Positions 2,554-4,631 of a stretch of 6,118 nucleotides of DNA are shown in pieces. The stretch spans positions 1 to 6,118 of IMG/VR virus record IMGVR_UViG_2703719355_000006. One strand, written 5' to 3'. Numbering within the stretch: position 1 is the first letter of the stretch; each line of letters starts with the position of its first letter. The DNA comes from a virus (Duplodnaviria > Heunggongvirae > Uroviricota > Caudoviricetes). Below the pieces are notes generated by a model, which did not search any database, was not told the origin of the DNA, and saw only the letters and a program-made list of their open reading frames with translations. Both the position numbers and the translations under genes were made by a program.

Positions 2554-2718
2554 CTAGATTTTAAAGTATTTATCTTTTAGAGATGTAGATGTAAAACTTT
2601 TCGCCTTTGAAAATTTTTTGTCATCAGAAGGGCTTATGAACTCATCTTTTTTGTAGGGAACCGCTAATGCTGCATCACGTCTGCGAGGCAGCTTGCTTAC
2701 TTCCTCGCGCTTTTTCAT
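2554..2718 (-). CDS. candidate small basic Ser/Thr/Lys-rich protein (54 aa), not in ORF track
   Basis: Hand translation of minus strand: ATG (2718-2716) lies 2 nt after the kinase TGA stop and is preceded by AAGGA about 10 nt upstream; product MKKREEVSKLPRRRDAALAVPYKKDEFISPSDDKKFSKAKSFTSTSLKDKYFKI; TAG stop (2556-2554) abuts the terminator hairpin. Low-complexity composition makes coding status uncertain. Confidence 0.35.
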   Translation of the reverse strand: MKKREEVSKLPRRRDAALAVPYKKDEFISPSDDKKFSKAKSFTSTSLKDKYFKI

Positions 2719-2720
2719 GA

Positions 2721-3767
2721 TCAGTTATCCTTTAATAACCTATACAGTTTTGTAGGGGTACATCCTGAGGATATTGTTAAGTTCGTAGCACGCCTTTTCC
2801 GCCCATCATCGTATAAACGAAAACCAGTAGTAGACGAATTTTCTGCGTCAAAAACTATAGACAGTATAGCGTCCCCAGACTTTTTTTGCCATTCGCATGT
2901 GCCGTTAGTTGGTTTCGTCATCTGTAGACGCCAGTCAAGAACGCCATCACTTATAGCTGAGAGATCGTTTAGTACATCTAGTACGGATTGATATCTTTCA
3001 TTTGGATCTACATGAATGCATTTGTTCACTATTGTTATTAATTTTTTATGTATATGGGGAGGATACTCTTTTAATGGATAGCAGCCATTAATTATCGACT
3101 CTCTGAGTTGTTCAATCGTGCTAAATGCAGATCTTTCTCTTTCAAAATTATCATGTCCAACACACATTCTATATATGGTTAATCCTGCCTGATATATGTC
3201 ATATGTGAAATTATAATCATTTGTTGATAAAGAAAAATATTCCGGTGGCACATGAAAATGATATCCAAACTCAGGCGCAGCTCTCGATTCCTCATTGACT
3301 AACTGAGATAATCCAAAGTCAGATAGCATGGCCTCATTTCTGTTTGATATCATAATGTTATTAGGTTTTATATCAAAATGCATAAGACCTTTTGAGTGTA
3401 TATGATAAAGTCCGCTTAAAAATTGAATGGAATACCGTATTATCTCCCTGCTTGTAAGATTATTTTTTTTCATTAATTGGTTTAGCGAACCATTATGATA
3501 AAATGGCATGGCTATATAGATATTACTCTCACATTGAGCAGCATACTGAACTTGCACAATATTTGGATGTGCATGTTTATAGAGAAGCCTTGCTTCATTA
3601 AAGTAGTCGTCGTGGTTAGTGTTTTCTTTTTTTTCTATTTCTTTAATCACCAAGTCATGAGCTAGGTGTCTGTCATGAGCCAGATATACTTTTGAAAAAC
3701 AACCCTGTTCTTCTAGATCACTTATCCATTCGAATTCTACATCAGCTCTTTTGTATGGAGTTAGCAT
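2721..3767 (-). CDS. eukaryotic-like (Hanks-type) Ser/Thr/Tyr protein kinase, 348 aa; Stk-like prophage kinase
   Basis: Complete ORF; ATG (3767-3765) preceded by GGAGG with a 7-nt spacer; 7-nt overlap with the stop of the upstream 153-aa gene. Kinase motifs in order: Gly-rich loop EQGCFSKVY, beta3 lysine in LVIKEI, catalytic loop HFDIKPNN (HRD-type with catalytic Asp), DFG in LSDFGLS, APE-like PPEY. About 33% GC, lower than flanking cI and N. Confidence 0.9.
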   Translation of the reverse strand: MLTPYKRADVEFEWISDLEEQGCFSKVYLAHDRHLAHDLVIKEIEKKENTNHDDYFNEARLLYKHAHPNIVQVQYAAQCESNIYIAMPFYHNGSLNQLMKKNNLTSREIIRYSIQFLSGLYHIHSKGLMHFDIKPNNIMISNRNEAMLSDFGLSQLVNEESRAAPEFGYHFHVPPEYFSLSTNDYNFTYDIYQAGLTIYRMCVGHDNFERERSAFSTIEQLRESIINGCYPLKEYPPHIHKKLITIVNKCIHVDPNERYQSVLDVLNDLSAISDGVLDWRLQMTKPTNGTCEWQKKSGDAILSIVFDAENSSTTGFRLYDDGRKRRATNLTISSGCTPTKLYRLLKDN

Positions 3768-4222
3768 CCCCTTACCTCCGCAGATAGTGCAGCCAAAACA
3801 GCTTCATTTGTTTCAGTTGTAAAACCAGAATTATCGATTCCATTTATATTGCGGTGTGACTTCAATATTTCTTTATACTCGATCTCTGTTAGGTTCAATG
3901 ATGATTTCATGCCAGATTTTCTAATAGTGTAATATTTTCTTACATCACTGCTTGAAAATGCTTCTTGAATAACAGCTTCTATATAAAGGCGGTCAATGCT
4001 AAGATTATCAGAGTTTGATTCAGTAACGCGTATGGCAGCTAATTCAACATTATATAAATTAAGAATGTCGAGGATGTTATTTCTCACATACTTTAATTTT
4101 TCTGGTGTGTCTAAGGTCGAAGGTATTTTAATAACATCAACACATTTGAGTGCAGACTCATTAGTGCAATATACAACAAAAGATGTAACTTTGGGCGCCG
4201 CTCTAACACCTAGTATTCTCAT
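3761..4222 (-). CDS. hypothetical protein (153 aa), translationally coupled to the downstream kinase
   Basis: Complete ORF; ATG (4222-4220) with weak AGGA about 10 nt upstream; stop overlaps kinase start. Product MRILGVRAAPKVTSFVVYCTNESALKCVDVIKIPSTLDTPEKLKYVRNNILDILNLYNVELAAIRV...; no catalytic motif recognised. AT-rich like the kinase. Confidence 0.7.
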   Translation of the reverse strand: MRILGVRAAPKVTSFVVYCTNESALKCVDVIKIPSTLDTPEKLKYVRNNILDILNLYNVELAAIRVTESNSDNLSIDRLYIEAVIQEAFSSSDVRKYYTIRKSGMKSSLNLTEIEYKEILKSHRNINGIDNSGFTTETNEAVLAALSAEVRGC

Positions 4223-4289
4223 TTTTTATATCCTATTTTAGAATCAGGCCGCATCTCTGCGACCATCCATCATCCAAACGTCTCTTCAC

Positions 4290-4631
4290 TCATCCGAAGA
4301 AGCAGCAATACGGGTCAGCACGCACAAGCTCAAGCGCATCAGTCAGCGAAAGTTCAGTACTGTACTGATGCCATTTCATATCCTTCCGCATCCAATAGAT
4401 TTTCCATCTATCCAGAGAACGTATGTACTTGATTCTTGCTGATGGCAGGATGTTTGTTTCACCTGGGTTGCCCTGCCACACGGGGCGCTGTTCGCCGATA
4501 TCTATCGTTTGGTCATTGATGCTATAAACAATATCCAGTTCATTGCGGATATGTTCAGGCGGCCTTATGCTTTCAATGAATTGGTGAACTTCTTTTTTGA
4601 CCGCTTGATATTCAAGGTCAGTGAACGCCAT
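4290..4631 (-). CDS. hypothetical protein (113 aa), first gene downstream of cI
   Basis: Complete ORF; ATG (4631-4629) preceded by GAGGAGG with a 4-nt spacer; 60-bp gap after the cI stop. Product has an aromatic/basic motif WKIYWMRKDMKWHQY and C-terminal PYCCFFG; family not identified. GC content near that of cI, unlike the kinase block. Confidence 0.7.
   Translation of the reverse strand: MAFTDLEYQAVKKEVHQFIESIRPPEHIRNELDIVYSINDQTIDIGEQRPVWQGNPGETNILPSARIKYIRSLDRWKIYWMRKDMKWHQYSTELSLTDALELVRADPYCCFFG

Follow-up and report, generated by a model that had tools for sequence, protein, structure and literature searches.

Among phage exclusion systems, the closest described counterpart of the locus treated here is that of the Stk kinase of phage 933W. 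Later papers citing Tyler & Friedman (2004) and Friedman et al. (2011) report that this kinase is co-transcribed with the repressor gene cI, that it is made in the lysogen and is largely inactive in uninfected cells, and that HK97 infection activates it, upon which it aborts the HK97 infection. The published exclusion of HK97 depends on activation of the kinase. In phi24B lysogens, two proteins encoded downstream of cI were detected by two-dimensional polyacrylamide gel electrophoresis (Riley et al., 2012); expression of both was restricted to lysogens, separate promoters were not found, and transcripts of two genes downstream of cI were present at 10 times and 100,000 times the cI level. Veses-Garcia et al. 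(2015) named vb_24B_13c and res as the genes shown earlier to be expressed in the lysogen. The subject of the present analysis is a four-gene cassette located between cI and an intrinsic terminator in a virus sequence from IMG/VR (record IMGVR_UViG_2703719355_000006, positions 1 to 6,118). This whole stretch of 6,118 nucleotides (nt) is referred to below as the window.

The cassette is the 933W stk locus, and as a whole it is already known, its role in exclusion having been published. Positions 2521-4700 of the window are 99.5% identical at the nucleotide level to phage 933W (AF125520; 2180 nt), and gene order and terminator agree as well. An identity of 99.5% also holds for phi24B and for dozens of Shiga toxin (Stx) phages of the Stx1 and Stx2 types. 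The locus, its four open reading frames (ORFs), its terminator and its position next to cI are those of the 933W system, with no sequence difference of note. The order is L0084, L0083, stk, L0081 and the annotated terminator tM in 933W, and vb_24B_13c, res ('putative Holliday junction resolvase'), stk, vb_24B_12c and tRM in phi24B. The product of the second gene, of 153 amino acids (aa), is 100% identical to its 933W copy, and viral contigs of IMG/VR contain kinases that match this one at 100% identity. The three distal genes were found in 223 of 5,426 complete E. coli genomes, mostly in Shiga toxin prophages, where RefSeq labels them as a kinase and two hypothetical proteins. An initial annotation, made from the sequence of the window alone, had proposed that a prophage-expressed kinase cassette mediates phage exclusion. 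This is borne out, but the identity to 933W and the published exclusion of HK97 by Stk mean that its central idea was already in print.

The 933W Stk system is described as a single kinase in the sources consulted, whereas the comparative data reported below point to a three-gene module made of a RuvC-fold protein, Stk and a small basic protein. It is a known system whose multi-gene architecture appears to have gone unrecognised. The best explanation, which we consider probable, is that an operon of 933W immunity, transcribed from pRM, carries a DUF3024 gene and, separable from it, a three-gene module that would have been acquired as one block and be translationally coupled, with Stk not acting alone. 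That the RuvC-fold protein, Stk and the small basic protein form the functional unit is predicted with high confidence from the comparison of sequences.

The region is the lysogenic immunity region of a lambdoid Shiga toxin prophage of the 933W type, with four minus-strand ORFs between cI and the terminator:

4692-5399, minus strand: cI repressor (Pfam Peptidase_S24, 4e-16, and HTH_3), counterpart of 933W cI
4290-4631, minus strand: DUF3024 protein of 113 aa (933W L0084; phi24B vb_24B_13c; PADLOC PDC-S43)
4247-4264, minus strand: hairpin GGUCGCAGAGAUGCGGCC in the spacer between the DUF3024 and 153-aa genes (folding of 4225-4295, z = -2.2)
3761-4222, minus strand: RuvC-fold protein of 153 aa (933W L0083; phi24B res)
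2721-3767, minus strand: stk, Hanks-type kinase of 348 aa (Pfam Pkinase; annotated stk in 933W, phi24B and others)
2554-2718, minus strand: basic protein of 54 aa, isoelectric point 10 (933W L0081; phi24B vb_24B_12c; phrog_4063)
2525-2555, minus strand: intrinsic terminator of the pRM transcript (933W tM; phi24B tRM), found by terminator scan and folding

The initial annotation had placed four co-oriented ORFs at these coordinates, and all are present on the minus strand. It had also described a 7-nt overlap between the 153-aa gene and the kinase gene and a distance of 2 nt between the kinase stop and the start of the 54-aa ORF. Both are there; the overlap reads ATGCTAA, and a GGAGG Shine-Dalgarno sequence lies within the 3' end of the 153-aa gene. 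The terminator that it saw closing the cassette is an 8-bp stem at 2555-2534 with 6 G-C pairs, followed by UUUUCUUUG (fold of -14.5 kcal/mol), and it overlaps the stop codon of the 54-aa ORF. Finally, it had assigned the cassette to the rexAB position, which is correct by direct positional homology, since the 33 nt that follow the cassette (window 2521-2553) are 100% identical to lambda 35792-35824, directly past the rexB stop.

The cassette belongs to the lysogenic pRM operon, which starts with cI, and the pM of the 933W record corresponds to about window 5407-5434. A terminator scan from cI to 2555 found none before 2555, and a promoter scan of the cassette found promoter-like sites at chance level (11 found versus 10 expected). 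The sequence is compatible with co-transcription of the cassette with cI from pRM. The G+C content is 0.45-0.46 in cI and DUF3024, versus 0.35-0.38 in the three distal genes.

Gene neighbourhoods were compared with the 153-aa gene as the anchor, using 30 aligned homologues (42-93% identity) and 39 loci from contigs of one genome per species. In 39 of the 39 loci, a Stk-like kinase (35-57% identity) was located directly downstream, on the same strand and at a distance of 0-80 nt, and the codons of the two genes often overlapped. The hosts were Gamma-, Beta- and Alphaproteobacteria, Bacteroidota, Clostridia and one Pyrinomonadaceae metagenome-assembled genome; the module spans Proteobacteria, Bacteroidota, Firmicutes and Acidobacteriota. 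For the converse test, 160 viral and metagenome loci were collected with a kinase profile. Wherever upstream sequence was present, the 153-aa gene lay directly upstream of every kinase with more than about 240 bits against the Stk-family profile, with one exception, whereas generic kinases of less than 150 bits, most of which come from giant viruses, had it in no case. The count of Stk-family kinases with the partner refers to 141 viral and metagenome loci. The sole exception (locus L069, from IMG/VR) is a 5'-truncated kinase lacking its first 57 residues as well as the upstream partner. The 153-aa protein is thus a predicted obligate upstream partner of Stk-family kinases.

Pairwise distances of the 153-aa proteins and of the kinases co-vary (r = 0.82), a value reached by none of 999 Mantel permutations. 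Bacillus phage SPbetaL7 (locus L204, 3486-5244) carries a matching three-gene operon, annotated only as hypothetical proteins. It encodes a 167-aa RuvC-like protein (hhalign probability of 99.4%) and a 350-aa kinase that shares 40% identity with Stk, and includes a 60-aa ORF. The whole three-gene block is also swapped for an NYN-domain ORF in phages that share cI and DUF3024. Two kinase copies in the set look decayed: that of locus L069, and that of Pseudoalteromonas sp. (locus L016, 5462-6452), where matches to the kinase lie in two frames, suggesting a frameshift.

The structure of the 153-aa protein was predicted, as the initial annotation had proposed, and gave an AlphaFold2 model with a predicted local distance difference test score (pLDDT) of 91.9. 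The top 12 Foldseek matches of this model were all RuvC, with template modelling (TM) scores up to 0.81; the T. thermophilus RuvC (4ld0) matched over the full length with a TM score of 0.80 and an E-value of 8e-10. Further matches included resolvases from E. coli, Deinococcus, phages and chloroplasts, and, lower down the list, the pseudonuclease domain of TEFM. The protein thus resembles both the RuvC resolvase and the TEFM C-terminal domain, which is a non-catalytic dimerisation module, in having the RNase H-like RuvC fold over its full length. Both GenBank (HM208303) and PHROGs label it as RuvC-like, a Holliday-junction resolvase. The Pfam scan gave no match for it, NCBIfam RuvC scored 12.5 bits against a cut-off of 163, and the family profile found no RuvC in the PDB, so the relation is structural only. 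A direct hhalign comparison of the family profile to E. coli RuvC (a reference sequence checked to be identical to 1HJR) was weak (E 0.04) and agreed with a one-to-one register of the secondary structures. An exhaustive profile search of 1.84 billion proteins yielded 447 clusters at 50% identity, nearly all of them stand-alone proteins of 150-165 aa.

Conservation was examined in 118 non-redundant homologues (25-85% identity). The residue aligned with the catalytic D7 of RuvC is R7, an Arg in 117 of 117 sequences, and that aligned with the catalytic E66 is R65, with 112 Arg and 6 Lys among the 118. The position equivalent to D138 (137) is variable, and of the RuvC tetrad D7/E66/D138/D141 only E140 is kept (Glu in 117/118). 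R47, E68, E82 and E87 are invariant (118/118 for the three Glu), and the 30-sequence alignment of the family has 22 invariant columns. A RuvC fold with basic residues at two metal-ligand positions fits a pseudonuclease, and we infer that salt bridges may fill the former active site; as a description of function, 'Holliday junction resolvase' is probably wrong. Right after helix 2, residues 89-92 read 'FSSS', with S91 present in 108 and S92 in 115 of the 118 sequences; this motif is a possible site of phosphorylation by the adjacent kinase. The record of Stx2 phage I (AP004402; locus L285, 1947-2027, about window 3896-3976) places three 'putative operators' and a second 'maintenance promoter for CI' within the 153-aa gene. 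A search of this segment for the 933W oR1 palindrome, allowing up to 3 mismatches, gave no match, and these features are probably an annotation artefact.

The 153-aa protein might instead be an active RuvC-type nuclease acting as the effector, with the kinase as its sensor or regulator. The full-length fold and the resolvase labels of PHROGs and GenBank speak for this, and the invariant E68, E82, E87 and E140 could bind metal. Nevertheless we regard it as unlikely: all 117 sequences have Arg at the D7 position and all 118 have Arg or Lys at the E66 position, and to our knowledge the first-strand Asp is universal in RNase H-fold nucleases. The protein also falls outside the RuvC families of Pfam and NCBIfam, its profile retrieves no RuvC from the PDB, and the family numbers only 447 clusters. 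Moreover, the published exclusion depends on activation of the kinase.

The kinase itself is of the Hanks type (Pfam Pkinase, 158.8 bits against a cut-off of 31.7; 2e-46). In 108 non-redundant kinases K42, E58, D132, K134, N137, the DFG motif (D150-F-G) and the Glu of the APE motif are invariant. The Arg of the HRD motif is replaced, giving HFD (F131 in 97 sequences, Leu in 9 and Met in 2), which makes it a non-RD kinase. Beyond the kinase domain lies a family-specific C-terminal region of about 70 aa in which W279 and W293 are conserved. The best PADLOC match was mad6, and PD-T4-6 models matched with E-values down to 1e-37, over residues 20-276, which is the generic kinase domain. NCBIfam NF047741, the equivalog of MADS Mad6, gave 122 bits against a cut-off of 460, again over the kinase domain only.

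Less probable still than a nuclease effector is that Stk is a self-contained, single-gene abortive-infection kinase, in the manner of Staphylococcus Stk2 or PD-T4-6, with small neighbours that are mere passengers. The literature frames exclusion in terms of Stk only, and PADLOC matches only the kinase, through its PD-T4-6 and mad6 models, with O157 genomes annotated accordingly. This is difficult to reconcile with a strict two-way synteny in more than 170 loci from four phyla, where start and stop codons of the genes overlap or are coupled. The two proteins also co-diverge, the 153-aa family keeps its 22 invariant columns, and its key positions are retained in the 118 homologues; passengers would not be expected to persist at 25-40% identity beside the same kinase family.

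The third gene of the module was evaluated by position. An ORF of 49-85 aa starting between -30 and +40 nt from the kinase stop was present in 96 of 99 non-redundant loci. The two controls, namely other long ORFs of these loci and shuffled downstream sequence, gave 32% and 19%. The small ORFs have a median length of 58 aa and a median net charge of +7, and they most often overlap the kinase gene by 4 nt (ATGA). By sequence, their products form three clusters, with 65, 11 and 10 members, and the L0081 protein of the window is in the enterobacterial cluster of 10. Members of all clusters share MK at the N-terminus, Arg near position 13 and an aromatic residue at the C-terminus. A Proteus homologue of the 54-aa protein was detected (tblastn, 4e-6); an iterative search from the 54-aa ORF stalled at the 10 enterobacterial members, a leave-out hidden Markov model scored it no better than shuffled sequences, and hhalign of its cluster against small ORFs of other clades gave an E-value of 0.25. 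The third gene is therefore conserved in position, size and charge only.

Several points weigh against a three-gene functional unit with a pseudonuclease partner. Synteny and co-divergence demonstrate co-inheritance and not physical interaction, and we know of no experiment showing that the 153-aa or the 54-aa protein is needed for exclusion. Published work, PADLOC and DefenseFinder all handle the kinase as a stand-alone gene. Sequence comparisons gave no statistical support for a relationship between the 54-aa protein and the small ORFs found in other clades. Placing R65 on E66 relies on the weak profile alignment (E 0.04) and on the secondary-structure register, and the invariant E68, E82, E87 and E140 could form an unconventional active site. 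The initial annotation had suggested that the partners of the kinase may be new. They are uncharacterised, and no paper was found that treats them as partners of Stk, but they were already annotated; its statement that only the kinase has an assignable fold does not hold, the 113-aa protein being Pfam DUF3024 and the 153-aa protein being labelled RuvC-like. The three-gene architecture, the pseudo-RuvC partner and the separation of DUF3024 were not found in the literature searched, which is no proof that they are unpublished.

The genes upstream of the module were cI-like in 10 of 75 cases. The others included restriction-modification methylases, AbiEii-like and AAA ATPases, terminases, and ordinary chromosomal genes. 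The repressor, restriction-modification, Abi-type and terminase neighbours are prophage and defence-island contexts. They bear on an improbable third alternative, ranked behind a nuclease effector and a self-sufficient kinase, in which the module mainly regulates the lysogeny or induction of its prophage, or the physiology of the host, and the exclusion of HK97 is a side effect. It is expressed with the repressor in lysogens, and a prophage kinase module with dual roles in lysogeny and defence is known (the Pf-phage kinase-phosphatase KKP). Most homologous modules are not beside repressors, however, and Stk is reported to be nearly inactive without infection.

The first gene of the cassette behaves differently from the other three. 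The 113-aa protein belongs to Pfam PF11225 (DUF3024; 2e-31, 108.8 bits against a cut-off of 24.9) and matches PADLOC PDC-S43 over residues 1-113 (2e-42). A literature search found no functional test of PDC-S43, which is a computational candidate only. Structure prediction, which had been proposed for this protein as well, gave an AlphaFold2 model (pLDDT 89, alpha-beta5-alpha), and a structural search with it returned no informative match. Of the 39 genomic copies of the kinase module, 38 lack DUF3024; the one locus that has it, in Proteus penneri, is also the only one in which a homologue of L0081 was detectable. Conversely, the Stk module accounts for about one third of 78 IMG/VR loci with DUF3024 (L207-L284), in which at least 15 different ORFs were found downstream of this gene. 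This cargo includes ParA-like ATPases, an RmrA-like helix-turn-helix/M78 protein, a HipA_2 kinase (PDC-M66A), and unknown proteins of 177, 162, 246, 349 and 375 aa. In Salmonella phage SE1, cI and DUF3024 are followed by a ParA-like gene. Many Stx2a phages have the same cI and a 99%-identical DUF3024, and then a single 285-aa NYN-domain ORF in place of the three-gene block (loci L002, 2521-3378, and L234, 3991-4845; Pfam NYN 7e-9, and a weak match to PADLOC HEC-09). Standing where the Stk module would be, the NYN-domain ORF is a candidate for an alternative exclusion gene. PADLOC annotation of an O157:H7 strain lists 'PD-T4-6' together with 'PDC-S43', which would fit a 933W-type region.

By this comparison of gene neighbourhoods, DUF3024 is taken to be a separate, repressor-adjacent gene on the edge of a slot with variable cargo, and not a dedicated partner of the kinase; the slot that follows it resembles a hotspot for prophage defence genes or morons. 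The initial annotation had read the cassette as a functional unit and not as independent morons. This stands for the three distal ORFs, given their synteny across phyla and their shared low G+C content, and does not stand for DUF3024, which occurs without the kinase and with at least 15 alternative cargoes and is lacking in 38 of 39 copies of the module. A single exclusion system made of all four ORFs, the least probable of the alternatives, was rejected: the co-orientation, tight spacing and single terminator, the presence of all four genes together in a Proteus penneri prophage (locus L005, 37-69% identity) and the standing of DUF3024 itself as a PADLOC defence candidate are outweighed by its absence from 38 of 39 loci, by the NYN, ParA-like, RmrA-like, HipA-like and other cargo that follows it in other phages, by the G+C contrast (0.46 versus 0.35) and by the homology breakpoint between DUF3024 and the 153-aa gene.

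Homology to phages of the Stx2_EH0505 type begins or ends at window 4266, at the spacer hairpin. The hairpin has 7 bp, is G+C-rich, is without a U-tract and is located exactly at the breakpoint. It might serve as a joint for recombination, as a site of RNA processing or as a stabiliser. As a processing or stability element, it could help explain the transcript levels of Riley et al. (2012).

How the three-gene module might work can be proposed only tentatively. It would be a three-component defence, shared by Enterobacterales, Bacteroidota, Clostridia and SPbeta-like Bacillus phages, in which the RuvC-fold pseudonuclease senses a phage recombination protein (for example the Erf of HK97) or branched DNA and switches on Stk, with the small basic protein as the third regulator. 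The RuvC-fold protein would be a non-cleaving, probably dimeric sensor or scaffold that detects the recombination protein, or the branched DNA made by it, and that joins two kinase molecules through the C-terminal domain of Stk, leading to activation. The small basic protein would be a co-regulator, such as an inhibitor or an adaptor. Active Stk would then phosphorylate cellular targets, and the cell would die or arrest before phage release. The sensor or scaffold step and the modulation step are held with lower confidence. A lead for the sensor idea comes from HK97: its gene 41, which occupies the slot between genes 40 and 42, encodes an Erf-like single-strand annealing protein, and the product, gp41, is reported to be the trigger of Stk. 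In the HK97 record (AF069529, 24175-24780; locus L206, 976-1581), the erf product is labelled 'Gp40', which duplicates the label of its neighbour, and is gene 41 by position.

Other described systems resemble the locus in part. Like lambda RexA/RexB, the cassette occupies the slot between cI and the post-rexB terminator and, by published accounts, is co-transcribed in the lysogen and acts in abortive exclusion. Rex, however, is described as a sensor and membrane-protein pair, whereas the effector of the module here is a kinase and none of its proteins is a predicted membrane protein, and the RexA/RexB families of Pfam, PADLOC and PHROGs had no match among the four ORFs. With Staphylococcus Stk2 and E. 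coli PD-T4-6 it shares a Hanks-type kinase domain in abortive defence; these are described as single genes, whereas Stk has an additional C-terminal domain, about 70 aa long and peculiar to its family, and is always accompanied by two flanking partners. The difference from the RuvC resolvase lies in the Arg and Arg/Lys of the 153-aa protein at the D7 and E66 positions, and in the variability at D138. As for PADLOC PDC-S43, the match is full-length, and DUF3024 is here a repressor-adjacent gene with variable cargo after it.

On either side, the cassette is flanked by cI, cro, cII and N as expected, cro and cII being on the plus strand. The left part of the window contains:

about 1-502, minus strand: Sak4-like single-stranded DNA-annealing ATPase, partial (phrog_2872, 2e-77)
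512-712, minus strand: 66-aa 'recombinase' (phrog_1723)
697-936, minus strand: Kil
803-1003, minus strand: CIII
1757-2182, minus strand: N antiterminator gene (Pfam N_peptide)

Phage 933W has gam/kil/cIII/ssb at the matching place. Judged by its gene content, the prophage is therefore a mosaic of 933W immunity with a different recombination module. Among the phage records compared with the window, none covers more than 80% of it. The ORF list over-extends two genes of the region: cro (window 5445-5705), with 86 aa versus a 228-nt (75-codon) cro in the records of 933W, phi24B and Stx2 phage I, and N (1757-2182), with 141 aa from a GTG, although the N_peptide domain begins at residue 29.

If the partners are required, the oldest known kinase-based abortive-infection system has a layer of sensors and regulators that has gone unstudied, and defence-annotation tools would be mislabelling the module as PD-T4-6 plus a 'resolvase'. 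The three-gene family, of about 450 clusters, would then be a tractable model for a nuclease fold repurposed to detect phage recombination and control a kinase. The SPbetaL7 operon offers a Gram-positive setting for work on the module. The slot from DUF3024 to the terminator is defined here as a cargo hotspot in which further prophage defence genes may be found.

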